From assembly GCF_054482525.1 (NCBI RefSeq), contig NZ_CM137006.1: 64,000 nucleotides of DNA; one strand, written 5' to 3'. Made by a program: the position numbers and the translations under genes. The notes under the pieces were generated by a model, which had not been told where the DNA came from, did no database searches, and saw only the letters and a program-made list of their open reading frames with translations. Positions 15,037-44,955 of the stretch are shown here, in pieces. Each line of letters opens with the position of its first letter. The first letter of the stretch is position 1.

Positions 15037-15046
15037 GCATCTTTCC

Positions 15047-16135
15047 TCACGGCAGGCGGTGGCGAGCTTGATAATAAGCCTGCCAGTGAGCTTCTTTATG
15101 TGTGGCGACGCGCTGTTCGAAGTAACGGCGCAGACGCGCGCGATCTTCTTCGTTATCTTTGACGATGGTTCCGGCAATACAGTCCACCAGGTCGGCAGGC
15201 TCCCCCGCGCGATTCGCTAAAAACCAGGCGCGGACACCCACAGCATGGGCCACGTTAACGGCTTCAGCGGTGGACATAATCGCTGTCAGTGTATCCATTG
15301 ACGTTTTCTTTTCGCCGTTGGCACGCAGATCGCGGAACGTGCGCACCAGTAATTCCAGTACCGTGTCAGGCACTTTATGCGGAATACCGCTATGGGCCAG
15401 CAAACGCGCCGAAGCACTGGCGACCAGTTCCAGCTCCTGGGCGAAATCCATAATCGGAAAGACAGTTTCAAAATCGAAGCGACGCTTTAGCGCAGCACTC
15501 ATTTCATTGACGCCGCGATCGCGGGTATTGGCAGTGGCAATAATATTAAAGCCTTCTCGCGCATAGAGCTGACTGGCTTCACCAGTGAGTTCCGGCACCG
15601 TCATTACCCTGTCAGAAAGCATACCTAACAGACAGTCTTGTACTTCCAGCGGTGTACGCGTTATCTCTTCAAAACGGACAATTTTGCCGTCGCGCATTCC
15701 CTGGTAAAGCGGGGCTGGGACCAGCGCTTCCGTTGACGGACCATGGTTGATAAGCAGGGCGTAGTTCCAGCCGTACTTGATTTGATCTTCAGTGGTAGAT
15801 GCGCCGCCCTGGATGGTTAACCCGGCATCGCCGCTAATAGCGGTTGCCAGTAATTCAGACAGGAGAGATTTTGCGGTGCCAGGTTCCCCCACCAACATCA
15901 AACCGCGCCCGGTTGCGAGAGTGACTAACATGCGTTCGACAGCGGAGGGGCTAATCACGACTTTACGGCTAATATTTTGTGCTTCGTCGCCAAGGATAAA
16001 AGCGCGGGCCGCAGGCAAACTTAACTGCCAACCTGGCGGGCAAGGTGCGTTATCATTTTGTTTTAATTTTGCCAGTTCATCGGCGTATAACACAGCGGCA
16101 GGCGGACGCTGCAGATGATTATTCTGCGGTGACAT
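15047..16135 (-). CDS. yehL: MoxR-like AAA+ ATPase
   Basis: Start at MSPQNNHLQ (362 aa, as in K-12 YehL). Walker A GEPGTAKS and Walker B/sensor region IVRFEEITRTPLEVQDCLLGML, typical of MoxR. Confidence 0.9.
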   Translation of the reverse strand: MSPQNNHLQRPPAAVLYADELAKLKQNDNAPCPPGWQLSLPAARAFILGDEAQNISRKVVISPSAVERMLVTLATGRGLMLVGEPGTAKSLLSELLATAISGDAGLTIQGGASTTEDQIKYGWNYALLINHGPSTEALVPAPLYQGMRDGKIVRFEEITRTPLEVQDCLLGMLSDRVMTVPELTGEASQLYAREGFNIIATANTRDRGVNEMSAALKRRFDFETVFPIMDFAQELELVASASARLLAHSGIPHKVPDTVLELLVRTFRDLRANGEKKTSMDTLTAIMSTAEAVNVAHAVGVRAWFLANRAGEPADLVDCIAGTIVKDNEEDRARLRRYFEQRVATHKEAHWQAYYQARHRLP

Positions 16136-16244
16136 ATATTCATCCCTGAAATGTATTAATGAAATAAACGATATTTTACGCGCAATAAATGTTTGGCGCA
16201 TTAGTTGTTTGAGCGAAAAATATCTGGAAAGCAGATCACAGTAA

Positions 16245-16329
16245 ATAAAAAAACCTGCTGGTGAGGCAGGTTCTTTGATTTACTACTTTCAGGCCTAACA
16301 CCACGGCCTGTGCAACATCGTGTTCCAAC
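16245..16329 (-). ncRNA. orzO: Orz-type antitoxin sRNA (predicted), copy 1
   Basis: Minus-strand promoter TTGCAA-17-TATAAT (-10 at 16336-16341). Minus-strand intrinsic terminator: stem 16252-16258/16266-16272 followed by a U-run. The 5' 20 nt (16310-16329) are complementary to the zor 5' UTR (16476-16495) with 1 mismatch. Ends are predicted, and the O/P naming is arbitrary. Confidence 0.65.
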
Positions 16330-16335
16330 GAACGA

Positions 16336-16386
16336 ATTATAACCATCGGTGGACCCCGTTGCAATTAAGATAATGAGATTTATAAT
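16336..16386. promoter_or_regulatory. divergent back-to-back sigma70 promoters for orz (minus) and zor (plus) sharing one palindromic -35 hexamer
   Basis: TTGCAA at 16359-16364 is its own reverse complement. TATAAT sits 16 bp downstream on the plus strand (16381-16386) and 17 bp downstream on the minus strand (16336-16341). The same layout occurs in copy 2 (16945-16995). Confidence 0.6.
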
Positions 16387-16566
16387 CCTGACTGTTGGGA
16401 CGTTGCGCCGGATCGAACCCATTTCAAGTCCTGGCTACCGGACGGGTGGTGCCGCAGGTAGTGCCCTGATCCGGAGTGCAACATCGTGGTCCAACATACG
16501 TAAACCAGTATCGACAGGCAGTGTAAGGGTAAGGTGCTGGTGTTGCGCTCCTTAATAAGGAGAGCG

Positions 16567-16656
16567 AATGGACACGCTGACACAAAAGTTAACCGTGCTC
16601 ATTGCTGTACTGGAGCTATTAGTGGCTCTGTTACGGTTGATTGATTTGTTGAAGTA
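16567..16656 (+). CDS. zorO: 29-aa hydrophobic type I toxin peptide (Zor family), copy 1
   Basis: Hand translation gives MDTLTQKLTVLIAVLELLVALLRLIDLLK*, which I recognise as the ZorO toxin described in E. coli O157:H7. Shine-Dalgarno AAGGAG lies upstream, and a long structured 5' UTR is predicted from about 16393. Confidence 0.8.
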
Positions 16657-16680
16657 ATGGGCAAATTGAAACGCAACTAA

Positions 16681-16703
16681 GGGGGAAAACCGCTTCCCCC
16701 TTT
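16681..16703 (+). terminator. intrinsic terminator of zor copy 1
   Basis: GGGGGAA-aaccgc-TTCCCCC stem-loop followed by TTT. Confidence 0.7.
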
Positions 16704-16852
16704 AATAAAATGATTACATCTTCCATTAATTCACCCGATAACTTTTTTCATATTTATAAATTCATCGATTTTATAATCAACGTACTATTTGGCCGGGATG
16801 TGAATAATCATGGTGGGCTATTGGCGAAAAATATCTGGAAAGTAGATCGTAG

Positions 16853-16938
16853 AAAATAAAAGAACCTGCTGGTGAGGCAGGTTCTTTTATTTACTACTTT
16901 GATGTTAAGTTACTGATAGTGCAACATGGCATCTCAAC
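16853..16938 (-). ncRNA. orzP: Orz-type antitoxin sRNA (predicted), copy 2
   Basis: Same architecture as copy 1: minus-strand -10 at 16945-16950 and terminator stem 16861-16869/16877-16885. The 5' 20 nt (16919-16938) match the cognate UTR at 17085-17104 with 2 mismatches. Confidence 0.6.
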
Positions 16939-17176
16939 GAACGAATTATAACCACCGCTGGACCGTGTTGCAATTAAGATAATGAGATTTATAATCCTGA
17001 CTGTTGGGAAGTTGCGCCGGATCGAACCCATTTCAAGTCCTGGCTACCGGACGGGTGGTGCCGCAGGTAGTGCTCTGATCCGGAGTGCAACATGGCGACT
17101 CAACATACGTAAACCAGTATCGACAGGCAGTGTAAGGGTAAGGTGCTGGTGTTGCGCTCCTTAATAAGGAGAGCGG

Positions 17177-17266
17177 ATGGACACGCTGACACAAAAGTTA
17201 ACCGTGCTCATTGCCGTACTGGAGCTATTAGTGGCTCTGTTACGGTTGATTGATTTGTTGAAGTAA
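17177..17266 (+). CDS. zorP: 29-aa type I toxin peptide (Zor family), copy 2; peptide identical to copy 1 (one synonymous change)
   Basis: Hand translation is identical to copy 1 (GCT to GCC, both Ala). Assigning O or P to a given copy is arbitrary. Confidence 0.78.
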   Translation: MDTLTQKLTVLIAVLELLVALLRLIDLLK

Positions 17267-17289
17267 TGGGCAAATTGAAACGCAACTAA

Positions 17290-17312
17290 GGGGGAAAACC
17301 GCTTCCCCCTTT
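17290..17312 (+). terminator. intrinsic terminator of zor copy 2
   Basis: Same GGGGGAA-aaccgc-TTCCCCC-TTT hairpin as copy 1. Confidence 0.7.
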
Positions 17313-17387
17313 AATAAAGTAATATTCTATTAGTTGGTTGAATATATTCTGTAGTTTACGATTAAAAATTGCTATTACAGTTTCAGG

Positions 17388-17639
17388 TTATTCACCTCGT
17401 AATTTCCGCTCATCAATACACTCATCTCTTATATAAATCAACGCATCATTTATTAGCGGGTCAACATCCTCTCGATCACGTTGATGAAATGTTGGACGTA
17501 GCCGGAACCGTTCCAGTCGGTAAACGGAACCTGTAAATAATTCAGAGCATTTATGGATCTCAAGTCTGAAGGAAAACGGATCTTCAGGTACAGGGACCTC
17601 ATAATTGTAAATAGCGACCAGCTCTTTTTGCACGCTCAT
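17388..17639 (-). CDS. yehK: small uncharacterised protein between yehI and the zor/orz module
   Basis: 83-aa ORF co-oriented with yehI, at the position of yehK in K-12. K-12 YehK is longer as I recall, so the symbol rests on position only. Confidence 0.5.
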   Translation of the reverse strand: MSVQKELVAIYNYEVPVPEDPFSFRLEIHKCSELFTGSVYRLERFRLRPTFHQRDREDVDPLINDALIYIRDECIDERKLRGE

Positions 17640-17699
17640 CGCTTTTCCCGATGGTAAGTCGTGTTGATAACGGGCAGTCGCATCACTGCCCGTTGTGTT

Positions 17700-20600
17700 T
17701 TAATGGAAAATGACGTCGGGTGCGCTTAACGCCTCACTCAAATCAAACACATCAAGTTCGGCAAAAGTGACAGATTTATTGTCACGGTATACATGAAGAG
17801 AACGGAAGCTCATTAGCGCTTTGCTATCAACATTGTAGTGGTTAAAACCGGATGAAAACTTAAGGACCAGCCGGTACTCGCCCAGGTCATAGACAAATGC
17901 GTTCTCATAGCCTGACTCCCAGCCTTTGTATCGCATTCCCATAAGTTGCCCAACGGTAGCAGATTTACCTTCCCAGCGATTCAAACTATTACTGGCTGAC
18001 TCGTCAGGCGTGAGCAGTACTGTGCGCCGTGCCAATTGGCGAAAAGGCGGCATAATTTCGTAATCGGCAAAAAGCTGTGCAAACTCACTGCGCATTTCTG
18101 CTGCCATTTCTAACGGGTGGGCAATGCCAATCAGAGCATCGGCAGGCAGGTCAATTGGCTCATCTTGCTCATTGCAGAACTCCCCCTCAGCGGCCACACG
18201 AAAGGCGTTGAGTAAACGACGCGGTTCATTTGCCGGATAAACACCCCATATTAATCGCTGAGTAACCAGACGGGTAAAGGGATGATTAACAAACAGAGAA
18301 TGAAAATCTGCCAGCGACCAGCGTCGGGTGGTGCGCAGGGCAGTTTCAAGACGCGGGAGCAGGTTTTTGCTCACCTGAGTGGCATCTTTTTTTAGCCCTT
18401 TTAGTCGGGCCAGTGCCTCGGGTGCTTTCAGTTGATCGTCATCGGCGCGCAACCGGGGAACGCTTTTCTGGCGAACGTTTTGCTGATCAAAGATAACCGG
18501 GTTAAGGTTTTCATCGAAGCGAACGGTAAATTGCCGTGGACCAAAATCAAAAATCAACGCCTGCGGATCATCAAGACCCAGTGTTGGGACTAATCTGTCC
18601 GCTAACTGTTCCTGGCTTAGCCCTCGATTTTCTGCGACCACCTGAAGAAATTCCGCCGCGTTATCACGTAAGGGGCGGGATTTCGCCCGTTGCGATATAT
18701 GATGCAGCTGTATCAGTGCCATATCATTATTCATCTGAGTAAGGATGTTCAGGCCGCTGACGGCACGGGCAGATTTGCCTTCCTGTGGCCAGGCAAGGAT
18801 CTGTGTTGTTAGATCCCGTGCCGTGCTTTCGTCGCCAAAGAGACTTAACGCCAGAAATGCCCAGTTGTCTTTTGCGGGAGCACCAGCTTGTTGCCACGCG
18901 GTGAAAAGATCCCAGGCAAAGGCTGCCAGCGTTTGCGGCTGGCAAAACGTTTTCAGCTGTTCCAGTCCGCTATAAAAACGTCCGCCCTGGGTAAAGCGCA
19001 GCATTTCGCCGATAATTTCCAGAGCGTCATCAGTAACAGGTTGATTATTCGTGATAAGGCGCGGCCTGGACCACATTGCCGGCTGCCAGAAATCAGGGGC
19101 TTTTGGAATGCGTGTCGGGTAAATCTCTATTGGACTCTGTTTAAGTAATTGCTCCAGGGCAGGCCATACATCTTTACGCTGCCAGCGGTTTGCCACGGTT
19201 TGCAGTAACTCGCCATGTCCCTGTTCGTAAAGTAAACGCAGGGCAAGTAATGCAGCTTCGCTATTATCGCTGGATTTGGTGAAGACAAGAGGGATAAGTG
19301 CAGTAGCTGTATGTTCCGGCCATTGTAAAATCCACTGGCGGGCCAGATCTCGCTGCGCCGCGAAACGTCGCCAGACGCGGGCAACGGGCAGGGCCAGTTC
19401 GGTTGCGCCGAAATTTAAAATTAACGGAAATGTTTCTTTTGGACGATGTGAAAAAGCCAACAGCAGACCTGGTAGAGCATCCAATCCGAAGATACTGAGA
19501 AAATAGTCCTCACCCGCAGACAGATGCTTTTTCTCATTGATACGTAGCCAGAAAGTCAAAGCCATCTCACGCGGCAACTGCGCCAATAAATACAGGTTCC
19601 AGATACTCTTTTCCCGACGATAGCGTGAGTAGCTGTCATTTTCCCATATGTTAATTAACACTTCTACGTGACCGCTGTGAAGCGCCTGTTCTGCTAATTG
19701 AGCTTCCGGGGAGCTCCAGCCATTCATGATCTCTTCAACCCGCCCTGGGTAGTAATGCCACTGAACAATGAGTGAATTGCGTGCAGCATCCAGTTTTCCG
19801 GGGAGTATATAATTCAAAAACAGCCATACATCATCTCCAAAACCCAGCTCCTGTAGTACAACTCGTCCACTTTTTTGTTCCATGCGTTCCGCAAGAGATT
19901 CCGTGCTGAAATAACGGGCAGACGCAGTGGCGGCAAGCCTCTCTCGTTCGCCTGGTTGCCAGTAAACTTGCGGCGTTAATTCGAACGGTGCCAAATCAAG
20001 ACGTGGAACTGTCATTTTTTTCTTACTACGCCACGGTGGTGAAACGAGGATTTCAGGCATTTGGCTGTTATCGGTGCTATCAATAACCGTTTTGGACGGT
20101 GCCGATAAATAACTATTCAGCATTGCCCGGGCTTGAGTACTTAACCACGGCATCACCTCTTCTGCCAGTTGTGGCTGCGATGCCATCAGCGTTTGTAACA
20201 GCGTACGCCAGTATTCATCGCGTGCTTTTTGCTGTGCAGGCAGCTTTTTGTCTTCAATGATTGGATAACCAGGGCGCGCAGGTGGTTCTTTTAACGCCAG
20301 CAGTTCTGCTAATGCGGCGAGCGTCGCATGGGGGAAGTTTTTACTGTATTTAGCCACACGTTGCAGGCTGGGTTTGTTTTTATCAGCAACTAACAGCAAG
20401 GTGCGGATGACTTGCGGATGGTTAATTTGTACCAGCAGACTGCCGCAATCTTCTTTATGGGCATACATCGCGAGGCGCGGAACGGCTGCCAGTCCTTGTT
20501 CGCGCAAAAGGGCGGCGCAGGCCGCGTAGCCGAAGCGGTTTTCTTGTGACATGTAGCTGGCTTCGCGATCGCTAAATACGTCCAGGCCCCAGTATCGTTC

Positions 20601-36091: not shown

Positions 36092-36120
36092 TTTACAACG
36101 GGTGCGCTGGACATTACCAT
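36092..36120 (+). promoter_or_regulatory. putative native thiM promoter, now separated from thiMD and pointing into the island integrase
   Basis: TTTACA-17 bp-TACCAT lies immediately upstream of the left copy of the riboswitch sequence. This is a prediction by eye. Confidence 0.45.
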
Positions 36121-36142: not shown

Positions 36143-36224
36143 CAACCAAACGACTCGGGGTGCCCTTCTGCGTGAAGGCTGAGAAATACCCGTATCACCT
36201 GATCTGGATAATGCCAGCGTAGGG
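36143..36224 (+). repeat. attL: 82-bp direct repeat, a 5' portion of the TPP (thi-box) aptamer that lacks the 3' strand of the closing helix and the expression platform
   Basis: Identical base for base to 44033-44114. It contains CTGAGA and the other thi-box core sequences. It diverges from the thiM leader after ..GCGTAGGG. Confidence 0.9.
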
Positions 36225-36307
36225 GGCCAAAATAGTCTTGAAAATTATGTGGTTGTATCTCTTTTTGACCATAAATCATGCTGTTAAGGTACAAAAAGGG
36301 GTCGTTT

Positions 36308-37615
36308 ATGAGGTCAAGAACTCTCCCATACACATTTCAGCGAAACGGTAATTACTATCTACAAATCCGGCTTTCGGATGGTCGGATATACAAAAAATCA
36401 CTTTTTACTGACAGTTATCGCGAAGCATCGGCGTTGATGATTGGCCTTACTCCGCACATTCCTTTCGTTAAATCACTCGCTACTCCGTTGCCGCAATTTA
36501 ATAAGTTTGTTTCAAACTTGATCGCTTCGTCACGTAACGTAATGATTCCGTTGCCACTCCCTCAGCAATTGAACAATATTTCTAAAGAAGTTTTGCAGCT
36601 TCAACCACCAGCCAAACCGGAAAAGGTACTAACACTTGCTGATGCGTGGGCTATGTACAAGGAGGAAAGAGGTCGAAATTGGACAAAATCGATCTCAATA
36701 GCAAATGAGCGTTATATGGAGGTATTGCTTGTTGTCTTGGGAAAAGAAACAGACGTAACGGCAATCACCAAACAAGATATTAAGCGAGTAATGGAAACTG
36801 TCGAAAACTTACCAAAGCGTGTAGTGCAACCGTATAGGTCAATGACTATTCAGCAACTAATCGAATGTGATGATGTGCTGCCAGAGGATTTAGTTGGTGC
36901 TGAGGCTGTACATAAGCACCTTAAAATCTACAAATCGTTATTCAAAACATTTCTGACTGAAAACAAAGATATTCTATCTAAGTCTCCGACTGATGGAATA
37001 GTAGCGGCACCATCCAAAGCTAGGTTTGGTGCATACAGTGCAGCAGAAATGAAAAAATTTGTAGGATGGGCACTAAAGCAGCCTGATGGATGGCAGAAGT
37101 GGATCACTTTGTTGTTGGCGTACACAGGAGCCAGAAGAGGTGAGATTGCTAAACTGGAGAAGTCGCAGATCAAATTTGATGAAGATAGCCAGCGGCACTA
37201 TCTTCTGATCGCGGAAAGAAGGCTGGGTAAAACTGAGAATGCTACAAGACAGGTAGTGATTCATCCCAAACTGATTGAGTGGGGGTTTCTGGATTTTGTT
37301 AACCGCCAATGGAAAGAGAAAATCTTTTCGGAAGTCTCAGGTCGAAATATGTCAAAGATAGGTAAAGTTCTTTCAGATGTTCGTGATCAGCTTGATATTC
37401 CTTATCTTGATGATTATGGGCAGCGGCGCTTGGTGCATAGTTTCCGGCATACTATGATTTCTACTTGTTTAGCTGGTTGGGTGAGTAATTTGGCGCATCT
37501 GCAACAGGTGGTAGGTCATGAAAAGAGTGGAGTAGGGATTACCCAGCGTTATCTGCACACATTCCCACTTTCCACCGTTTGTTATGTGATCGATGGTCTT
37601 TGTTGGGAGACTTAG
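36308..37615 (+). CDS. tyrosine recombinase / integrase
   Basis: The ORF in the track starts at 36278. I prefer the ATG at 36308, after an AAAGGGG Shine-Dalgarno. N-terminal arm-binding-like RNGNYYLQIRL, then catalytic-domain motifs ARRGEI, HSFRHT and GHEKSGVGITQRYLH (Tyr). Confidence 0.88.
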   Translation: MRSRTLPYTFQRNGNYYLQIRLSDGRIYKKSLFTDSYREASALMIGLTPHIPFVKSLATPLPQFNKFVSNLIASSRNVMIPLPLPQQLNNISKEVLQLQPPAKPEKVLTLADAWAMYKEERGRNWTKSISIANERYMEVLLVVLGKETDVTAITKQDIKRVMETVENLPKRVVQPYRSMTIQQLIECDDVLPEDLVGAEAVHKHLKIYKSLFKTFLTENKDILSKSPTDGIVAAPSKARFGAYSAAEMKKFVGWALKQPDGWQKWITLLLAYTGARRGEIAKLEKSQIKFDEDSQRHYLLIAERRLGKTENATRQVVIHPKLIEWGFLDFVNRQWKEKIFSEVSGRNMSKIGKVLSDVRDQLDIPYLDDYGQRRLVHSFRHTMISTCLAGWVSNLAHLQQVVGHEKSGVGITQRYLHTFPLSTVCYVIDGLCWET

Positions 37616-37743
37616 TTATTCGTGTATCCTTCTTAGTGTATAACCAGCTAATAATTTGTAGATTTTTATTGTCTGAGATCAAAAATTTTCACAACTAATT
37701 TACAATAATAACTTAAGATGAATTTAGGCTTAGTGAGTCTTCT

Positions 37744-38469
37744 ATGGTTAAAAATTTAGGCAAAAAATACAAGTATGGCGATCAACCGATAAGAGCTATT
37801 ACCATACAGATAATTGCTAATCAGTTTGGTGGGGCTGCAACGGCTAAGCAGGTAGATGATTATCTTAGAAAGCTATTTCCATCTTATAAAGATAATACTT
37901 GGCTCAATTTAATTGCTAATACAGTTAATTGTAAGCGGAGCTACTGGAGTTTCAACAAAACTGCCCGACGAACTGATGATGTAACTCATCGGCATCATAA
38001 GTATGACCGATTGTTCAAGCGTGGAAATATTTTTGAAATCTATCAACCATCTGTGCACGGTATTTGGGAATTATACCAGGATTTAGAAGGGATGTGGCGT
38101 TATCGTCAAGTAAAATCGGTTTTCGAAGAAGCTGTTGAGACGGCTGCAAAATTATCTTCAGTGGAACGAAAGCAAATTTTAGCGACAGAAAGTAAAATCC
38201 CGGAACTAATCGAAGTAACAACACGAGTTTATAAACGAAGCCCATATGTAGTTGCTGAAGTTCTTTTGAGAGCAAATGGAAAATGTCAATATTGTAAGCG
38301 AGATGCTCCTTTTCTAAAGGAAGATGGTACTCCATTTCTAGAAGTTCATCATATTGAGTGGCTTTCAAAGGGGGGGGAGGACTCTGTGGAAAATGCTATT
38401 GCATTATGTCCTAATTGCCATAGACAAGCCCATTATGGCGATCTGACATTACTACCTGTTAATAAATAG
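37744..38469 (+). CDS. HNH nuclease-domain protein with an uncharacterised 170-aa N-terminal domain (McrA-like architecture)
   Basis: C-terminal CQYCKRDAPF..EVHHIEWLSKGGEDSVENAIALCPNCHRQAH is a canonical HNH/zinc-ribbon motif. No adjacent methyltransferase gene. Confidence 0.8.
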   Translation: MVKNLGKKYKYGDQPIRAITIQIIANQFGGAATAKQVDDYLRKLFPSYKDNTWLNLIANTVNCKRSYWSFNKTARRTDDVTHRHHKYDRLFKRGNIFEIYQPSVHGIWELYQDLEGMWRYRQVKSVFEEAVETAAKLSSVERKQILATESKIPELIEVTTRVYKRSPYVVAEVLLRANGKCQYCKRDAPFLKEDGTPFLEVHHIEWLSKGGEDSVENAIALCPNCHRQAHYGDLTLLPVNK

Positions 38470-38546
38470 GCTTGATGAAAGTTCTATTTCTATATTTTTC
38501 AATATACAAATTTCCCCAAAAACGGCGTGAATATCACGCCGATCAA

Positions 38547-38894
38547 TCATACTTCAGAACACATACTCAATGTGTAAACAGCCATCTCCCCATCGGGATT
38601 AGAAGGGCGTAATACAAATATCGGTATACTGCCATTGTCAATGTATGTGGCTGCAACCCCTCCGTCAGGTGTAGCATACATCTTTGCGATGCTTTTTTGA
38701 CCTACAAAATCAAGTCTCCAAGTTTTACCGCCAAGATTTATGGTCATTTTTTTATCTTGTATATCAAAAGTTGAATCTACAGAAACTTTCTGACTTCCCG
38801 AGTCAATATGACCTTCCTGTATTGCTTTACAGGAAAAGGTTGTGGCGTGGCCCATCACTGGAATTAACAAAGCGGCAAATACTAGTTTTTTCAT
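38547..38894 (-). CDS. small secreted protein of unknown function
   Basis: I prefer the start at MKKLVFAALLIPVMGHA (signal peptide), after an AAGGGAGA Shine-Dalgarno. 115 aa with two Cys. The ORF-track start at 38951 is rejected. Confidence 0.7.
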   Translation of the reverse strand: MKKLVFAALLIPVMGHATTFSCKAIQEGHIDSGSQKVSVDSTFDIQDKKMTINLGGKTWRLDFVGQKSIAKMYATPDGGVAATYIDNGSIPIFVLRPSNPDGEMAVYTLSMCSEV

Positions 38895-39004
38895 TTGTCT
38901 CCCTTGGTGTGTCAAATGGATGGTGATGCTAATAATACATGATTGATTCAAAATGTCACGATTAGTGCGTGGTTAATTGGTGCGTCAAATTGCATCTTTG
39001 TGCC

Positions 39005-39469
39005 ATGCGAAAGAATCTGAGATACCTTTTTGGACAACGAGTAAAAGAGTTCCGTATAGCTATTGGCTTAAGCCAAGAGGCCTTTGCAGATCGGTGTGGT
39101 TTTGCACGTAGTTATATGAGTCGAATTGAGCGTGGTTGCTCTAATGCATCTCTTGATGCAATTGAGGTTCTGGCTGACGCTTTGCGTATTGAGCCTTGGC
39201 AGTTACTGGCTTCTGATTCAAGGAAACCTGATGATCAGGAGGTACTTGTTCCTTATGCTGCAGATGGGTCGTGTTTTCATCCAGGATTGGCAAGTACTCG
39301 CGATGGTTCGTTTAGAGTAGGGGAAAAATCAGCCCAGAAACGTTTCAGTTCGTTCAATGAAGCTCTCGAATACCTTCGTGGAATGGAAACCGCGAAGTGG
39401 CGTAGGCCTAATGCTAGTGGTAATTGGGGAATTGTATCTGCGGTTAAATGGGATCGACTGAATCAATAA
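39005..39469 (+). CDS. XRE-family HTH protein fused to an uncharacterised C-terminal domain
   Basis: HTH region LSQEAFADRCGFARSYMSRIERGCSNASLDAIEVLADAL. The 90-aa C-terminal part (..ETAKWRRPNASGNWGIVSAVKWD..) is not recognisable to me. Start chosen at MRKNLRYLFG. Confidence 0.75.
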   Translation: MRKNLRYLFGQRVKEFRIAIGLSQEAFADRCGFARSYMSRIERGCSNASLDAIEVLADALRIEPWQLLASDSRKPDDQEVLVPYAADGSCFHPGLASTRDGSFRVGEKSAQKRFSSFNEALEYLRGMETAKWRRPNASGNWGIVSAVKWDRLNQ

Positions 39470-39635
39470 GATATCAGTAATTTTCGGGCCACTCCACAAG
39501 GCAATAAGTGGCTTAGTGGTGATTATCGAAGGGGAATACAAGCGAGCACCTAGGCACCATTGCAAGAACCGCTCAACGCTGAGATCAGCAAGCCCCGATT
39601 TTTGCCGACCGTCCCTGTCAAATATCAAGGAGGCA

Positions 39636-40187
39636 TTACGCCACCTGCTCTTTCTTGATACGTTGCACCGTCTGCGTGCTGACACTGAAATCTTTTGCTA
39701 CGCTCCGAATTGAGCCACCATTCGCGAGAGCGGCAGCAATTCCCGCTCGATCAATTGCTTTTCCATTACCACGTTTTGCTATACGTCCAGCGGCCTTGGC
39801 TGCGGCGATCCCTTCACGTTGACGCTCAAGCATCATTTCACGTTCCATTTGTGCCACTGCTGCAAGAACTGTGAGCATCATATTCCCTGCGGGAGAGTTC
39901 TTTCCTGTCTTAAAGTCTTCTTTATGGAAATGCACAGACACGCCGCGCTTTGTTAATTGCTCTACAGTTGCCAGAAGGTCGGCTGTATTACGACAAAGGC
40001 GATCAATACTATGGACGTGTAACACGTCACCCTCCCGCACATAGTTCATCATTGCCTCAAACTGTGGGCGCTGAGTGTTCTTGCCTGACGCTTTATCTTC
40101 AAAGACTTTATCAAGAGTTACTCCTGCTAATTGACGGTCTGTGTTTTGTTGCACAGTCGATACCCTAATGTATCCAATATTAGCCAT
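39636..40187 (-). CDS. serine recombinase (resolvase/invertase family)
   Basis: MANIGYIRVSTVQQNTDRQ contains the catalytic Ser. Also VHSIDRLCRN and a C-terminal HTH (SIRSVAKDFSVSTQTVQRI). 183 aa. Confidence 0.9.
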   Translation of the reverse strand: MANIGYIRVSTVQQNTDRQLAGVTLDKVFEDKASGKNTQRPQFEAMMNYVREGDVLHVHSIDRLCRNTADLLATVEQLTKRGVSVHFHKEDFKTGKNSPAGNMMLTVLAAVAQMEREMMLERQREGIAAAKAAGRIAKRGNGKAIDRAGIAAALANGGSIRSVAKDFSVSTQTVQRIKKEQVA

Positions 40188-40214
40188 CTTCTTTTTTCTT
40201 CTGTATTGATTTGT

Positions 40215-40318
40215 GTGTAGTGATTATTGAACGTGTTGATTAGGTGTGTAAAGTACTTTTTTCACTACGAAATTCGAAGTTTTTTAGTGTGGTGATTTAG
40301 CCTGCCTTATCACTACAC
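40215..40318. promoter_or_regulatory. res-like site upstream of the serine recombinase gene
   Basis: Perfect 10-bp inverted repeat GTGTAGTGAT (40215-40224) / ATCACTACAC (40309-40318), with inner related half-sites TCACTAC (40262-40268) and TAGTGTGGTGA (40285-40295). Confidence 0.5.
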
Positions 40319-40572
40319 TTCTTGCATGAGAATCATGTAGTTACATTTTGGTAAAATTAGCAAGCTATTAAATTGTGTGTTTATTTTGAAAAAATAATTT
40401 TTGTTGCATTAAAGAAAACTTGTTCGACAAATAATAGGTTGATTTTTGATCAATAATTTCTGATAGTGCTCTGTAAGCCGCATTACACAAGGCGCAGCGA
40501 AAGTGATGTAAAAGTGAAGAAAGCTAACATTGCACTTTTAAACTACTTTTCATTGAATTTTTTAGTATGGAA

Positions 40573-40643
40573 TTACACAGGAATAAGTTAGGGATATTCT
40601 ATGATTTACACAGGGAATATAGGGGGATTATGGTATTACACAG
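40573..40643 (+). repeat. three direct repeats of about 20 bp with core TTACACAG, spaced 33 and 30 bp
   Basis: TATGGAATTACACAGGAATA, TATGATTTACACAGGGAATA and TATGGTATTACACAGAGTGA. Cores are at 40573, 40606 and 40636. Confidence 0.7.
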
Positions 40644-40673
40644 AGTGAGTGCTATGTGATGATTGGTAGTAAC

Positions 40674-40782
40674 GGTAGGTCACTGTGAACTAGGGGGGTA
40701 GGTCACTGTGAACTAGGGGGGTAGGTCACTGTGAGCTAGGGGGTAGGTCACTGTGAACTAGGGGGTAGGTCACTGTGAACTA
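40674..40782 (+). repeat. five contiguous iterons (GGTAGGTCACTGTGAACTAGGGG, period 23/23/22/22 bp): putative vegetative origin
   Basis: Read directly from the sequence. Copy 3 carries one A-to-G change. The array is immediately followed by an AT-rich tract. Confidence 0.85.
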
Positions 40783-40877
40783 CAATAAGACTATAATAAG
40801 ACTATTAATAAAACTATATTAGATTATTAATTAGATCATAATAATAATATTCTTTATATCTATATATATATGATCTT
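40783..40877. other. AT-rich tract next to the iterons (candidate DNA-unwinding element)
   Basis: Almost pure A/T, with internal AATAAGACTAT x2 and a TATATATATAT run. Confidence 0.5.
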
Positions 40878-41883
40878 TTGCCTTCCGGCGTTAGCTTCAC
40901 TCTCTGGCAAGCAGCCTTACTCCGCTACCTTTCGGGCTACGTTGGCTGGCCCGTTCCGCTCACACCGAAAGCAAAGCGTTACTTTCTTCGTGTAACTTCG
41001 TTGGCGGTAACGCCCACGAAGGAATACTATTGCGCTGTGCGCAGTAAGAGTAATCACCTAACCAATCATCTGATTGCTTACGTGTTAACTCTCTCTAACT
41101 CTTAATTACCCTCCTACATTTAATAACTCTCGTTATTCTCTGTAGTTGTGTAATTACTCGAAGAGAGAGCGGCTAAAGCTCAATTACACTCTGCTTTCCT
41201 CGTGTAATTTCACTAAGCCTCAATACAATTTCACTTCCTACATTCTGTAGTCGTGTAATTGTTTTCGGTGGAAAAGCCAGAGGCGACACCGAAAGAGAAT
41301 TCTGATCTTATTAATCTTATCTATCTTAGTTATCTTACTTACTTTATCTACTTTATTATTAATAATAGCTTTATAAGCTCTCTGTGTAGCTCTCTGACGC
41401 AAGAAACAGAGTTCAGGAAGGGAATCACCTTAGAAAAGTGTTCTTTGCGTCATAATGTGTTTTATGAAGGATTCAGAGGTGTTTCATAACAGAGATGTAT
41501 AGAGGATACTTTAGGTAATTAAAAATAAGGGGTCTAAATGCTTCTCTAACAGCATTAAGCAGGGTAGAGAATGGAAACCGCTTTGCCTACATATATAAAC
41601 TCACTACAGGGCTTTACAGAGCGTTTTATAAAGTGACTCTCTGTTTTATATCTACCATCACCTTTTCATATACCTAACAAATACAAAATAAGCCCCTTAA
41701 ATAAGCCTCTGGCGAGCTAAACAGCCATTACATAAGAGAATGTATTGCTTTTATCAAAACCTCGTTAGAACGCGTTTTAGAGCGTTTTAGCGGATAATGA
41801 AGAATAGCACTACACAGGAGAGCACGAATTGCTAAGAAAAAATGTAACTACATGAAAAAGATCAGATTTTTTGTGAAAAGGTA

Positions 41884-41912
41884 TTGACAAACGTCTCTTT
41901 CTGTGCAATAAT
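41884..41912 (+). promoter_or_regulatory. predicted sigma70 promoter upstream of the rep-like operon
   Basis: TTGACA (41884-41889), 17 bp, then AATAAT (41907-41912). Confidence 0.5.
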
Positions 41913-41965
41913 AGGTATTAGAGGGACAGGAATAGATTCTTATCCTCTAAATAATTAAACCAATG

Positions 41966-42010
41966 CACCGCACTTTGAAGCCCAAGGCTTGTAAGGTGTG
42001 TTTTTTCTTT
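41966..42010 (+). terminator. intrinsic-terminator-like hairpin between the promoter and the first ORF (attenuator, or the 3' end of a roughly 90-nt sRNA)
   Basis: Long imperfect stem 41966-41982/41986-42000 around a CAA loop, followed by TTTTTTCTTTT. It lies 29 bp upstream of the ATG at 42039. Confidence 0.55.
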
Positions 42011-42038
42011 TAACCAAATAGAATAAGGAGGCTAATTA

Positions 42039-42227
42039 ATGAAATATTTTACTCCACAGGATGTAGTAGAAGCCTGGAAACGTGGTGAGATCAACCGCTT
42101 TAAAGTAAGGATGTATAGAAACACCGCTCGCCGTTGTGGTTATCCAGAGCGTGAAAAATGTTTTGACGATGCACTAAAAATTATTGATGAACTGCGTAAA
42201 GCTGAGAAAGAAGCAGAGAAAAAATAA
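42039..42227 (+). CDS. 62-aa basic/acidic small protein, unknown function
   Basis: Strong AAGGAGG Shine-Dalgarno 8 nt upstream. It is the first ORF of a tightly packed 4-gene cluster. Confidence 0.65.
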   Translation: MKYFTPQDVVEAWKRGEINRFKVRMYRNTARRCGYPEREKCFDDALKIIDELRKAEKEAEKK

Positions 42228-42249
42228 TAGACAAGAGAAGGAGAAAACT

Positions 42250-42417
42250 ATGAGCGAAACTAAGAAACCAATTCCGCGCACTTACCTACACGTTGACCCT
42301 GAAATCTTCAAGGTTTTATTTGCTGAAGCCAAGAAAAGGCAAATTATGGTCAGTGATTTGATGTTAGAAATCATTACTGAAGCAGCAGAGAACATCAAAC
42401 AAAAAAAGGGTAAGTGA
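42250..42417 (+). CDS. 55-aa ribbon-helix-helix (CopG/Arc-like) protein candidate
   Basis: Start at MSETKKPIPRTYLHV after AAGGAGAA. The beta-strand, helix, helix pattern (RTYLHVDPEIFKVLFAEAKKRQIMVSDLMLEII) fits an RHH fold. The ORF-track start at 42184 is rejected. Confidence 0.6.
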   Translation: MSETKKPIPRTYLHVDPEIFKVLFAEAKKRQIMVSDLMLEIITEAAENIKQKKGK

Positions 42418-42468
42418 TCCTCATTCACTTTAGTAGCGCATTAAGCGTGATTTATAAGGAGATTTTTA

Positions 42469-43158
42469 ATGATTAATCAACTAACTTTTACAAAACACTA
42501 TGACACGTTTGATAATGTATCAAAGATTTATTCTGATAAATTCCCTCAAGGAAAAGATTTAGATCTATTACATATTGTGCTTTATTTTCGATTCCTTAGT
42601 TATCAGGAAAACAACCTTAATTGTTATGAAAGTCACGAAACATTAGCTAAGATTTTTAAGTCTTCAGCGTCAACAATTAAACGTAAGATAAACGATCTTA
42701 AAGAGATGGGATTATTAGAAACATCCCCACATCCTGATCCGTATATTTCATCTTTGATTTACAATGCTCTCCCTCTCACAGATGCACATATTACTCCCCC
42801 AGGAGAATCATCACTCTCTGATCTTTCTGAGGCAGAAGAAGCACAGGAACAACCTAAAGGCCATAAACAGCCTTCTTTTGATGTTCTTGATGATTGGGAT
42901 ACGCCTTTACCCTGGGAGACGGAAGAAACACCTGTTTCATCAAGTGAAAAAGTAGCTAATGATAATGAGGAGGATGTGTTAGAGAATTTTGCCTCTCTTA
43001 TCATCCAGGAGAAACACACAAGAACAGGAGGAGCATCATTTATTGAGTTTGCAAATTCACTAGCTTGTAGATACGGGCTAAAACGACCAAATGGTATTGA
43101 GGCATATTTTTCTAAGAATTACCCAAATATATACGATGACTTTGATATTCCATTTTAA
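42469..43158 (+). CDS. putative replication initiator (winged-helix N-terminal domain, acidic C-terminal half)
   Basis: HETLAKIFKSSASTIKRKINDLKEMGLLE is an HTH/wHTH like those in DnaD/Rep-type initiators. AAGGAG Shine-Dalgarno. It is encoded near the iteron array. The function is inferred. Confidence 0.55.
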   Translation: MINQLTFTKHYDTFDNVSKIYSDKFPQGKDLDLLHIVLYFRFLSYQENNLNCYESHETLAKIFKSSASTIKRKINDLKEMGLLETSPHPDPYISSLIYNALPLTDAHITPPGESSLSDLSEAEEAQEQPKGHKQPSFDVLDDWDTPLPWETEETPVSSSEKVANDNEEDVLENFASLIIQEKHTRTGGASFIEFANSLACRYGLKRPNGIEAYFSKNYPNIYDDFDIPF

Positions 43159-43169
43159 TAAGGAGGGTT

Positions 43170-43415
43170 ATGATTCAATATTTAGTAAAAAATCAAGTAG
43201 ACAGAATTCAGTGTAATGACACAGGAAAACGCATCTACGAGACACTTGTTTACCTCTATAAAGGAAAGCCAACACCGCTAAAATATAGCGATGTGTTACA
43301 TCGAGCAGGTTGCTCTGAGTCAGGTTTAAAATTCTGGCTGAAACAGCTATCAAATTTCGGTGTTATTGAAATGAAAGAGCTGTCTTTTTCTACATTCAAC
43401 CTCAAGAAGTTATAG
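43170..43415 (+). CDS. 81-aa winged-helix-like small DNA-binding protein candidate
   Basis: AAGGAGGG Shine-Dalgarno. The YSDVLHRAGCSESGLKFWLKQLSNFGVIE segment looks like a wHTH. Confidence 0.55.
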   Translation: MIQYLVKNQVDRIQCNDTGKRIYETLVYLYKGKPTPLKYSDVLHRAGCSESGLKFWLKQLSNFGVIEMKELSFSTFNLKKL

Positions 43416-43483
43416 AAAATAGAATTCATCTATTCCACGCTCTAATTCTATTTCTCTGTTTAATATAAAAGGAAAACATTATT

Positions 43484-43561
43484 ATGGTAATAGCTATGTG
43501 GTGGTTGTTGTTTTTTATGCTCGTAGAAACATATGCAAGTAAGTCTGGAAAACAAAAATAA
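43484..43561 (+). CDS. candidate 25-aa hydrophobic peptide (MVIAMWWLLFFMLVETYASKSGKQK)
   Basis: Hand-translated. AAGGA lies 10 nt upstream. It has a hydrophobic N-terminal part and a basic tail, like type I toxins or small membrane peptides. There is no other support. Confidence 0.25.
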   Translation: MVIAMWWLLFFMLVETYASKSGKQK

Positions 43562-43580
43562 TATATTGATGATTTGTTTT

Positions 43581-43820
43581 TTATAACTTCGTGGTGTCAA
43601 GTCCAGCAGCTTTGAGTCGCTCGGTAAGATTTCTCATTTTGCTGAACTCTGTACCAAAGCTGGCTTTAAGTCCTACACCTTCACAAAACTCTTTTGCCGT
43701 AACCTTTTTCAGATGGTCAGCATATTTGATCATCTGGAGGTGCATTTCCATCGTTTGGCTATTTCGTGGTGCGCTGCTAATGGCTTGCTTAATGTTCTCG
43801 TAGATCTGGGTTTCTGTCAT
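43581..43820 (-). CDS. 79-aa protein of unknown function at the right end of the island
   Basis: Clean ORF, MTETQIYENIKQAISSAPRNSQ... It is the last gene before attR. Confidence 0.6.
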   Translation of the reverse strand: MTETQIYENIKQAISSAPRNSQTMEMHLQMIKYADHLKKVTAKEFCEGVGLKASFGTEFSKMRNLTERLKAAGLDTTKL

Positions 43821-44032
43821 TTTTTATCTCACCTATCAAATTTAGATAAATAATATAAATTAGCAAATTAAGATAATCAATAGTTTTTATCATCTGAATG
43901 ATAGATGTTAAATGTTTCTTTTTCATTTCTGATATGGGGTACAAAATGGGGTACACAGAGAAGAAGCAATTAATGGAGGCGAGCTTGCATCTGCAAGCCA
44001 CTTCCCCTAAGCTGGCACAAAATATAGAGATT

Positions 44033-44166
44033 CAACCAAACGACTCGGGGTGCCCTTCTGCGTGAAGGCTGAGAAATACCCGTATCACCTGATCTGGATA
44101 ATGCCAGCGTAGGGAAGTCACGGACCACCAGGTCATTGCTTCTTCACGTTATGGCAGGAGCAAACT
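44033..44166 (+). promoter_or_regulatory. complete TPP (thi-box) riboswitch of thiM; its first 82 nt form the attR repeat
   Basis: CGACTCGGGGTGCCCTTCTGCGTGAAGGCTGAGAAATACCCGTATCACCTGATCTGGATAATGCCAGCGTAGGGAAGTC matches the well-studied E. coli thiM aptamer. It is followed by the native expression platform and a GGAG Shine-Dalgarno. Confidence 0.92.
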
Positions 44167-44955
44167 ATGCAAGTCGACCTGCTGAGTTCCGCGCAATCTG
44201 CGCACGCGTTACACCTTTTTCACCAACATTCCCCTCTTGTGCACTGCATGACCAACGATGTGGTGCAAACCTTTACTGCCAATACCTTGCTGGCGCTCGG
44301 TGCATCGCCAGCGATGGTTATCGAAACCGAAGAGGCCAGTCAGTTTGCGGCTATCGCCAGTGCGTTGCTGATTAACGTTGGCACGCTGACGCAGCCACGC
44401 GCACAGGCGATGCGTGCCGCCGTTGAACAGGCAAAACGCTCTCAAACACCCTGGATGCTTGATCCAGTAGCGGTGGGTGCACTCGATTATCGCCGCCGTT
44501 TTTGTCTGGAACTTCTGTCTCATAAGCCAACCGCCATACGTGGTAATGCTTCGGAAATCATGGCATTAGCTGGCGTTGCTAATGGTGGACGGGGAGTGGA
44601 TACCACTGACGCCGCAGCTAACGCGATACCCGCTGCACAAACACTGGCACGGGAAACTGGCGCAATCGTCGTGGTCACTGGCGAGATGGATTATGTTACC
44701 GATGGACATCGTATCATTGGTATTCACGGTGGCGATCCGTTAATGACCAAAGTGGTAGGAACTGGCTGTGCATTATCGGCGGTTGTCGCTGCCTGTTGTG
44801 CGTTACCAGGCGATATGCTGGAAAATGTCGCATCTGCCTGTCACTGGATGAAACAAGCCGGAGAACGCGCAGTCGCCAGAAGCGAGGGGCCAGGCAGTTT
44901 TGTTCCACATTTCCTTGATGCGCTCTGGCAATTGACGCAGGAGGTGCAGGCATGA
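44167..44955 (+). CDS. thiM: hydroxyethylthiazole kinase
   Basis: 262 aa ([32 protein letters not shown]..), matching K-12 ThiM. The stop overlaps the thiD start. Confidence 0.95.

Follow-up and report, generated by a model that had tools for sequence, protein, structure and literature searches.

We analysed a stretch of 64,000 nucleotides from contig NZ_CM137006.1 of the RefSeq assembly GCF_054482525.1 (hereafter the window), in which rcnR and thiM, neighbouring genes in Escherichia coli K-12, are separated by a 7.9-kb element. The element is bounded by two perfect direct repeats of 82 bp (36143-36224 and 44033-44114), whose starts are 7,890 bp apart, and chance cannot account for a perfect match of this length within 64 kb. 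Between the repeats lie the genes for a tyrosine integrase, an HNH nuclease, a small protein, an XRE-family regulator and a serine recombinase, followed by a long non-coding region with five iterons, a Rep-like operon and a small HTH_73 gene (Table 1). The GC content of this interior is mostly 0.33-0.45, compared with 0.47-0.53 in the left flank and 0.53-0.58 in thiMD. An earlier note on the same DNA had proposed an integrative, plasmid-like element inserted into the thiamine pyrophosphate (TPP) riboswitch of thiM. Its description of an AT-rich interior between rcnR and thiM is borne out by the GC values, and the start that it gave for the integrase gene, 84 bp inside the left repeat, is also the start annotated by PGAP (36308).

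The earlier note had also taken the repeats for the 5' part of the thi-box aptamer, and both copies indeed score above the Rfam gathering threshold for RF00059 (54.3 bits), with 71.2 bits for the right copy and 61.3 bits for the left one. In the right copy the aptamer is intact and runs on into the thiM expression platform, with the thiM ATG at 44167. In the left copy the 3' strand of the P1 stem is damaged by mismatches, because the sequence past ...GCGTAGGG is element DNA. Two TPP riboswitches are annotated by PGAP in identical copies of the element, and an Rfam E-value search of the interior returned two TPP matches and a spurious tmRNA fragment (15 bits), with no other known RNA family. 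When the two flanks are joined in silico, as the earlier note had suggested, they form one seamless piece in 4,728 of 5,426 complete E. coli genomes, K-12 among them, which is the empty site. The 82-bp sequence itself has a median of one copy per genome (5,700 places in 5,424 E. coli genomes). Most genomes therefore do not carry two copies without the interior, the situation that the earlier note had named as speaking against an insertion. These results establish both the boundaries of the element and its empty site.

The integrase retains the catalytic R...HxxR...H...Y residues when it is aligned with distant relatives that target rnpB (see below). It is present in 146 of the 5,426 E. coli genomes. 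All copies are chromosomal, with essentially one per genome, and nearly all adjoin an annotated riboswitch. A scan for homologues with one genome per bacterial species returned 52 loci (loci are numbered with an L below). Of the full-length homologues in Enterobacterales, 27 of 27 have a TPP aptamer upstream of the integrase gene, at a distance of 85-130 nt, with confirmation by Rfam for several. These loci come from Buttiauxella, Lelliottia, Enterobacter, Dryocola, Silvania, Leclercia, Atlantibacter, Citrobacter, Klebsiella, Pantoea, Rahnella, Erwinia, Franconibacter, Winslowiella, Mangrovibacter and Serratia, and in at least 13 of the 27 a second copy of the aptamer follows 3.4-11.3 kb downstream, succeeded by the thiM leader with its expression platform. 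Two types of junction, ...GCGTAGGG|GGCC... and ...GCGTAG|TCCTGGCGATTATCC..., correspond to two integrase clades (A and B), which are about 70% identical. In the second type, the P5 arm of the aptamer and the element sequence together make an inverted repeat around CGTAGTC, which resembles a classical core. The target is thus constant across the lineage, and it is the riboswitch, not a tRNA or transfer-messenger RNA (tmRNA) gene, as the earlier note had supposed.

In marine Gammaproteobacteria, among them Methylophaga, Marinobacter, Marinomonas, Oleiphilus and Porticoccaceae, the integrase has relatives with about 30% identity. Here, 15 of 17 tested loci (L033, L035-L044, L046 and L048-L050, with the integrase at about position 10001 in most) are situated directly downstream of a complete gene for the RNase P RNA (rnpB), the distance from the rnpB end to the integrase gene being roughly 90-880 nt. 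The direct repeats of these elements are the 3' end of rnpB, 117-175 bp long and 3.4-8.4 kb apart, and no tRNA gene adjoins the marine integrases. The TPP-site and rnpB-site groups can be aligned end to end with their catalytic residues kept. Therefore, the lineage targets structured non-tRNA RNA loci, and one of its branches has moved onto a riboswitch. According to a paper of 2025, the known RNA targets of such integrases are tRNA and tmRNA genes and csRNA, to which that paper adds ffs. In the literature searched, which consisted of open-access papers only so that absence is no proof, we found no report of rnpB as an attachment (att) site and none of a riboswitch. The riboswitch att site appears to be new.

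The position of the crossover could be narrowed by means of sequence variants. Where the host and element forms of the aptamer differ, the host form is always at attL and the element form always at attR. This segregation was seen at the P3 stem in L005, L006 and L008 and, at the J region, in L014, L017, L022 and L052. Only 26 bp, ACCTGATCTGGATAATGCCAGCGTAG, are common to attL and attR in Pantoea ananatis (L024). Moreover, when the window is compared with strain CE0007a, the first mismatch leftward of the element is position 36146, within the left repeat. Therefore, strand exchange takes place within the last 26 bp or fewer of the repeat, where the P4/P5 stem would supply the symmetric sequence that tyrosine integrases use. 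Of the earlier proposal that the 82 bp are the att site, the repeats themselves stand, while recombination needs only this last part and the rest serves to restore the aptamer. attL is host-derived as far as the crossover, since the difference at 36146 places its 5' part in the chromosome, and attR is element-derived as far as the crossover, the window and CE0007a being the same up to 44243. The remainder of the repeat, 5' of the crossover block, is an element-borne copy of the aptamer's 5' part that rebuilds the riboswitch at attR. In E. coli the 82-bp identity also takes in the 11 nt ahead of P1, where the elements of other genera differ, and this suggests that the element's copy of the aptamer has been homogenised to the host sequence.

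Both sides of the core carry recurrent motifs. On the integrase side these are AGGTACAAA (36287-36295), AGGTCAAGA (36311-36319), which overlaps the int start, and the inverted copy CTTTTTGAC (36261-36269). In 16 clade-A loci the motif, (A/G)GGTACAAA, keeps these positions, and it recurs at the right end of the element. The right arm of the window's element consists of two copies of GGGGTACA (43936 and 43948), the palindrome GCTTGC-ATCT-GCAAGC (43983-43998) and the conserved CTTCCCCTAAGCTGGC; the same arrangement, with two or three copies of GGGGTACA, the GCTTGC...GCAAGC palindrome, CTTCCCCTAAGCTGGC and then the aptamer, is found across genera. The (A/G)GGTACAAA copies are arm-type-like, that is, putative lambda-like arm sites on both arms of attP. 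In the excised circle, attP would read ...AAAATATAGAGATT, the 82-bp repeat and GGCCAAAATAGTC....

Table 1. Features of the thiM riboswitch element and its borders (positions in the window).
Feature	Position	Strand	Basis or remark
Native thiM promoter candidate, TTTACA-17-TACCAT	36092..36120	+	promoter scan 9/12; 23 bp upstream of left repeat
attL, left 82-bp repeat	36143..36224	+	TPP aptamer 5' part, P1 5' strand to P4 3' strand
Minimal identity block ACCTGATCTGGATAATGCCAGCGTAG, P4/P5 hairpin region, inferred crossover	36197..36222	+	second copy 44087-44112 in attR
int-proximal attP arm	36261..36319	+	arm-type-like motifs (conservation and recurrence at right end)
Tyrosine integrase, 435 aa	36308..37615	+	PF00589, phrog_1; PGAP start 84 bp past left repeat
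McrA-like HNH nuclease, 241 aa, predicted Type IV (modification-dependent) restriction cargo	37744..38469	+	PF01844; PADLOC mREase_IV 1.3e-23
Small protein with signal-peptide-like N-terminus, 115 aa	38547..38894	-	PGAP, via L001; phrog_35183 only
XRE-family helix-turn-helix regulator with uncharacterised C-terminal domain	39005..39469	+	HTH_31/HTH_3; PADLOC 'control protein' 6.6e-17
Small serine recombinase, 183 aa, resolvase/invertase type	39636..40187	-	PF00239 1e-38; phrog_125 2e-61
res-like site upstream of recombinase gene	40215..40318	.	GTGTAGTGAT 40215-40224, perfect complement ATCACTACAC 40309-40318
Four direct TTACACA(G/A) boxes	40480..40644	+	inverted copies GTGTAAT at 41148, 41202, 41253
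Five iterons GGTAGGTCACTGTGA[A/G]CTAGGG	40671..40787	+	period 22-23 bp
AT-rich candidate DNA-unwinding region, two GATC sites	40788..40875	.	position conserved in all related origins
GC-rich, strongly structured block	40876..41110	+	core 40897-40961 conserved across genera
Non-coding stretch, about 950 bp	40888..41840	.	95-100% identical among islands, above genes (conservation profile)
Strong rep-operon promoter candidate TTGACA-17-AATAAT, extended TG	41884..41912	+	11/12 match
Two small open reading frames: 62 aa 42039-42227; 55 aa 42250-42417	42039..42417	+	no family matches
Rep-like initiator, 229 aa	42469..43158	+	PF13730, phrog_270
81-aa open reading frame, last gene common to the module of capsid-encoding islands	43170..43415	+	shared-module comparison
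HTH_73 protein, 79 aa	43581..43820	-	PF24718 1e-30; homologous to ECD_02033 of E. coli B
attP right arm	43936..44032	+	conserved in clade-A elements of many genera
attR, right 82-bp repeat	44033..44114	+	completes intact TPP riboswitch 44036-44132, ahead of thiM 44167-44955

In strain CE0007a, a bovine isolate from New Zealand, 7,808 bp of element show 0 differences from the window, against a flank identity of 97.7% and 97.1%. The block of identity extends from 36147 to 44243, so that the switch falls inside the repeat on the left and about 130 bp beyond it on the right. An identical element in flanks diverged by 2.3-2.9%, with the switch at the att sites, is the signature of site-specific acquisition, and it demonstrates that the element was acquired horizontally and recently. 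The flanks of the window are shared with SCU-102 and PCN033, which belong to the same lineage. In addition, tandem arrays occur: L019 and L008 are neighbours on one contig of Enterobacter nematophilus, and the left flanks of several elements are the right ends of other elements. These arrays, together with the perfect repeats, point to recent integrase activity. The hallmarks of a site-specific island are thus present, namely the catalytic residues, repeats with an empty site, a constant target and recent mobility.

The site is a busy one. The rcnR-thiM spacer is interrupted in about 700 of the 5,426 E. coli genomes, an extra copy of the aptamer is present in at most about 276, and at least 80% of the window's element in 64. 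One of the other islands found there has TIR, NACHT and Type III restriction genes. In the O157 strain AR-0428 (L002, 17840-20000), a remnant lacking an integrase has an HTH_73 gene beside the riboswitch, other genes and no left repeat. Could the element of the window then be an immobile relic, a decayed mosaic of a merged capsid-encoding satellite and defence island that has spread only vertically or by homologous recombination in the flanks? Integrase-less remnants, in O157 and E. coli B for example, are common at the site, as the about 700 split sites against 146 integrases indicate; structural genes are absent; and the window's copy has only a degenerate form of an attL-side hairpin that other genera conserve. 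On the other hand, every gene of the element is intact, the element of CE0007a is identical in spite of its diverged flanks, and the tandem arrays and perfect repeats speak for an integrase that was active recently. A relic is consequently doubtful, and we judge it rather improbable.

One further occupant of the same att core deserves description. In L069 (1-9950), an element with a primase, a major head protein, a portal, TerS and TerL, which is the gene set of a capsid-forming phage-inducible chromosomal island (cfPICI), lies immediately to the left of a clade-B aptamer-targeting island (10001-19522), the two standing in tandem. The right end of the cfPICI-like element has two copies of GTGTGGTCAGTT and only a 40-nt partial aptamer (GAAATACCCG...GCGTAG); alone at the site, this element would not rebuild the riboswitch.

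The locus, and even this very island, have been listed before. A variable 'genome island adjacent to thiM' carrying EcoBLMcrX was described in E. coli B (Fomenkov et al., 2017; PMC5487053), and the 'rcnR-thiM' island of strain 789, with 7,956 bp, was catalogued as RM_type_IV by DefenseFinder with the mobile-element type 'None', the mobility of integrase-only islands being called unclear (Hochhauser et al., 2023; PMC10121019). The latter list contains the island of the window and gives no integrase, att site or mechanism for it. The island of E. coli B is found at this locus too, with an HTH_73 gene (ECD_02033) beside thiM and likewise a modification-dependent nuclease; that nuclease is 'BisI-like', an enzyme different from the McrA-like HNH protein of the window (PMC5487053). 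The integrase, the repeats and the riboswitch target are in neither paper. The locus is thus not an unknown one, whereas the integrase, repeats and riboswitch target had gone unnoticed.

The cargo, which the earlier note had called uncharacterised, includes a gene whose kind is recognisable. The C-terminal half of the HNH protein (residues 141-232) is homologous to E. coli McrA (PDB 6ghc, 5.5e-23), while its N-terminal domain (residues 1-140) has no characterised relative in Pfam or PDB searches. The protein is to be classed as a McrA-like Type IV restriction nuclease, with predicted modification dependence, in agreement with the RM_type_IV label of the strain 789 island, and we regard the identity of the cargo nuclease as established at this level. 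The XRE regulator is RstR/DicA-like by NCBIfam. Homologues of the small protein at 38547..38894 adjoin the serine recombinase in L006 and L008. The HTH_73 protein is typical of the thiM-proximal end of islands at this site, with 92-94% identity in L006 and L017, and was met above in the O157 remnant; the published primer for ECD_02033 encodes MQMTETQI (PMC5487053). In several E. coli plasmids an HTH_73 homologue is directly downstream of a tyrosine integrase gene (L060 4990-6535, IncY pCP53-92k). The HTH_73 protein may be a partner or regulator of such recombinases.

The serine recombinase, which is present in about half of the related islands, is confirmed by its PF00239 match. The res-like site reported next to it, a perfect 10-bp inverted pair accompanied by half-site-like copies near 40259 and 40288, is a plausible one, at which the recombinase would act. 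Searches of the element proteins against Pfam, PHROGs and NCBIfam gave no phage structural gene, relaxase, conjugation gene or transposase, in agreement with the absence of phage structural, conjugation, mobilisation and transposase genes noted before.

Between the recombinase and the rep operon lie 1.85 kb without genes, in which the five iterons are found, and no DnaA boxes occur in the origin region. The five-iteron origin (40671-40787) and Rep-like operon (42039-43415, four genes) of the earlier note are upheld by a comparison of 15 related origins, in which the iteron sequence changes with the Rep variant and the AT-rich/GC-rich scaffold is constant. For example, Rep proteins with at least 92% identity go with GGTAGGTCAC-type iterons, a Rep of 51% with CCCCCACAGAATTCTGTTA and a Rep of 41% with GTAACGATACGTTACA, and Reps at 28%, 24% and 35% identity each have a further distinct iteron array. 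Because Rep and iterons co-vary, a co-variation that we regard as demonstrated, the module is a real origin. A commoner variant of the island, in EC-10 (L072), is about 97.4% identical to that of the window over 86% of its length, and differs at 40640-43160, where Rep is only 28% identical and the iterons are swapped on the same scaffold. This difference amounts to a swap of an origin-specificity module between otherwise near-identical islands.

The initiator family is small, with 39 clusters among 1.84 billion representatives. Its alignment displays a winged helix, the motif LPLTDAHxxPP, which is invariant, an acidic linker and, at the C-terminus, a conserved [DE]F[DE]xIPF, and 17 of 19 members match PHROG entries for replication initiators (phrog_270). 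The protein of the window ends in ...YDDFDIPF (43138-43155). The tail of the E. coli single-stranded DNA-binding protein (SSB) is ...DFDDDIPF. This similarity suggests that the initiator recruits PriA, DnaG or chi, the SSB-interacting replisome proteins, by mimicry, which fits an element without its own primase or helicase and an origin without DnaA boxes. The 55-aa open reading frame of the operon looks, by eye, like a ribbon-helix-helix repressor.

Downstream of the AT-rich region, the GC-rich block has fold z-scores of -4.6 (+ strand) and -4.0 (- strand) relative to shuffled controls, and retains 87-92% identity to Enterobacter and Serratia elements that have diverged elsewhere. It is a candidate for a single-strand initiation or primosome-assembly signal. 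The block is the structured, GC-rich start of the non-coding stretch of about 950 bp, whose neighbouring genes and iterons are far more diverged and which contains three GTGTAAT boxes. The stretch has no Rfam family and no similarity to phages, and to plasmids only in two embedded copies; a hidden gene was considered and rejected, as there are 19-29 stops in each frame. It may act as a packaging site or as a signal for priming, or it may be a long RNA. It could also be thought to hold an origin of transfer (oriT) on which a relaxase acts in trans, so that conjugative plasmids mobilise the island. For such an integrative mobilisable element one may cite the 95-100% identity of the stretch with its strongly structured core, the occurrence of the module in one conjugative IncF plasmid, and the hitchhiking raised for integrase-only islands by Hochhauser et al. 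(PMC10121019). Nevertheless, no relaxase or coupling-protein gene was found by Pfam, PHROGs or NCBIfam, the region has no nucleotide similarity to plasmids beyond the two embedded copies, and in every relative the structured block is exactly at the position expected for origin priming, beside the iterons and the AT-rich region. An integrative mobilisable element of this kind is very unlikely.

The replication module is far more widespread than the integrase. It is present in 746 of the 5,426 E. coli genomes, mostly at other sites, and 871 of 873 module copies are chromosomal. Its extent in the window (39636-43415) is shared at 88-94% nucleotide identity with chromosomal islands of about 12 kb that sit at tRNA-Thr (beside proA) and tRNA-Gly (beside yqeG), for example in APEC O1 (L057, 7130-19288), 2009C_3996 (L058) and NC101 (L059). 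Their integrase is a different one, and they also have genes for a capsid protein (Phage_cap_E), a tape-measure-like protein of 609 aa and a Dit-like tail protein, with no terminase or portal. This capsid-encoding backbone looks like, and is likely to be, an uncharacterised satellite family; no paper on it was found in the literature searched. In L057 and L058, which are tRNA-Thr islands, two iteron arrays occur about 1.5 kb upstream of the rep operon, first of the GGAAGTGGTTTCC type and then of the GGTAGGTCAC type, each followed by its own AT-rich stretch. They look like tandem origins of two specificities.

The same distribution bears on whether the element is an autonomous integrative plasmid, which after excision would persist as a low-copy iteron plasmid, have its multimers resolved by the serine recombinase and spread as plasmids do. 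Its Rep-like initiator, five iterons, AT-rich region, resolvase with res-like site and putative repressor are indeed standard plasmid parts, and one copy of the module is inside an IncF plasmid. However, no free plasmid with the element or module exists among 72,556 PLSDB records (megablast and blastn), where the only matches are two embedded copies, in a 166-kb IncF plasmid (interrupted by IS3) and in a 4.9-Mb record. All 146 integrase copies and nearly all module copies are chromosomal, no partition, toxin-antitoxin or mobilisation genes were detected by Pfam, PHROGs or NCBIfam, and the other hosts of the module are capsid-encoding islands. Contigs of about 7.5 kb with Rep variants, which might be taken for episomes, were rejected as fragments of these islands. 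The autonomous plasmid is thus very unlikely, and the term plasmid-like of the earlier note should be given up. Compared with iteron theta replicons and lambda-O-type origins, the origin would share the initiator-bound direct repeats, the AT-rich region and the co-variation of initiator and iterons; unlike them, it has no DnaA box, an initiator with the SSB-tail-like DFDIPF, a structured block past the AT-rich region and no free replicon. In other words, iterons, an AT-rich region and a cognate initiator are present and a free circular replicon is not.

It is rather with phage satellites that the element may be compared. In P4 and in the SaPI/PICI satellites, an integrase combined with an iteron origin is normal. 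Like satellites (P4, SaPI/PICI and cfPICI), the island of the window is small and has a dedicated att site for its integrase, an iteron origin with an initiator, swappable Rep/origin specificities and anti-phage cargo. Its replication module is common to the capsid-encoding islands, and a cfPICI-like element occupies the same att core in L069. Unlike satellites, it is 7.9 kb long instead of the usual 10-15 kb, has no known helper phage or induction, and lacks alpA, a primase, terS, capsid-size redirection or any other packaging gene. No AlpA or Phage_AlpA was found in the element by Pfam, PHROGs or NCBIfam, and the XRE regulator is not divergent beside int. Thus, of the features that define PICIs, the integrase at a dedicated att site is there, the alpA or divergent repressor and the packaging or capsid genes are not, and for replication there are an initiator and iteron origin with no primase or helicase gene. 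On the strength of its sequence we consider the element a satellite-like integrative defence island. The class that the earlier note could not name is therefore a satellite-like integrative island with a new kind of target.

How is thiM expressed after such an insertion? The sequence of the native promoter candidate is chromosomal in genomes with an empty site. After insertion this host candidate would remain to the left of attL, facing the P1-damaged aptamer and int instead of thiM. A candidate surrogate promoter, TTGCAT (43985)-17-TAAGCT (44013), would lie in the right arm, at the right end of the element. As for int, the (A/G)GGTACAAA motif flanks its ribosome-binding site and overlaps its start codon, and arm-type sites around this region suggest that int may regulate itself. 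An RNA hairpin hiding the ribosome-binding site was also considered, and was rejected because the same motif occurs at the right end of the element; an apparent compensatory change in L010 is better explained by arm-type protein-binding motifs. Likewise, control of int by a TPP-responsive chimeric riboswitch was rated unlikely, since the P1 3' strand is restored inconsistently across relatives, and is kept only as a low-probability reading.

Islands at tRNA genes offer the closest parallel. Islands that target tRNA genes reportedly restore the 3' end of their target (Williams, 2002, cited in PMC10121019). Several properties of the window element are those of the P4/lambda-type islands at tRNA and tmRNA genes: a structured RNA target, a stem-loop symmetric core, a carried copy of part of the target by which its function survives, terminal repeats, tandem arrays, int beside attL and arm-type repeats in both arms (Islander, PMC4383910). 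The differences are that its target is a cis-regulatory aptamer and not an RNA gene, that the 5' part is restored, the repeat's 3' end being where the crossover falls, and that the host promoter is redirected to int. Since it is the 5' part that is restored, the element must also bring a promoter. The dusA-specific integrases (Farrugia et al., 2015; PMC4482086) likewise insert at a conserved host gene, at its 5' end, which is the other known case of an element situated between a gene and its upstream signals. Their target is protein-coding and no RNA aptamer, and they presumably belong to an unrelated integrase family.

Taken together, we consider it probable that the element is a site-specific integrative island of 7.9 kb made of three modules, for integration, for cargo and for replication with resolution. 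In the integration module, a lambda-like tyrosine integrase would act on an attP that centres on a copy of the thiM TPP aptamer's 5' part. Because the target is a cis-acting leader and not an RNA gene, insertion would leave the host promoter behind at attL together with the 5' aptamer, away from the expression platform and thiMD. This would be compensated by the element's own 5' aptamer, placed behind the conserved promoter-like arm, which makes attR an intact riboswitch, while the host thiM promoter would read into the P1-damaged aptamer and then into int. The cargo module would consist of the McrA-like HNH Type IV nuclease, the XRE regulator and the small secreted protein, and the replication/resolution module of the serine recombinase with its res-like site, the iterons, the AT-rich region, the GC-rich block and the rep operon. 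Its initiator, with a winged helix and an SSB-tail-like C-terminus, probably recruits primosome or replisome proteins of the host, and the module would be borrowed from the capsid-encoding, tRNA-integrating, satellite-like islands. Most likely, it supports transient replication after excision and not plasmid maintenance. Of the possible transfer routes, packaging by a helper phage is tentatively the likeliest, at somewhat less than even odds.

Several observations weigh against this explanation. As described above, decay at the site is common. Neither an excised circle nor an attP junction nor an episomal contig was seen, and no excisionase was identified in the element. Packaging or capsid-redirection genes were not found in it by Pfam or PHROGs, and searches of 50,697 phage records with Rep (tblastn) and with the non-coding region (blastn) gave nothing meaningful; matches in IMG/VR were rejected as evidence of encapsidation, as they come from proviruses in isolate genomes and not from viromes. 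The surrogate promoter is a weak match to the sigma-70 consensus and was not called by the consensus scan, and read-through from the rep operon could drive thiMD instead. The assignment of the predicted initiator is well supported by PHROG labels, context and co-variation; a PDB profile search of it returned generic winged-helix regulators only, and a single-sequence AlphaFold model was unusable (mean confidence, pLDDT, of 49).

Elsewhere in the window, two OrzO-P antitoxin RNAs (RF02083; 91.9 and 90.2 bits) were found on the - strand at 16247-16322 and 16858-16931, and they presumably belong to a zor-orz type I toxin-antitoxin pair.

With the island at the thiM riboswitch, the target range of site-specific integrases widens from RNA genes (tRNA, tmRNA, csRNA and ffs) to a cis-regulatory riboswitch, and the island provides a solution that is the mirror image of that of tRNA islands, in which the element would restore the 5' part of the target and bring the promoter. 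It places the thiamine salvage operon of the host behind element DNA and the promoter of the host before the integrase. It also links such islands to a widespread replication backbone that elsewhere carries capsid and tail genes. The integrase with its 26-bp core, which lies in a highly conserved aptamer, could be a broad-host integration tool for Enterobacterales. A further-reaching combination may be envisaged, in which thiMD are expressed from an element promoter, int is expressed from the thiamine-regulated host promoter through the P1-damaged aptamer, excision and spread respond to thiamine, and the lineage has passed from rnpB to the riboswitch. That all of these hold together is unlikely; if they did, this would be a mobile element with a life cycle tied to a riboswitch, driven by an integrase lineage that had jumped from rnpB to an aptamer.

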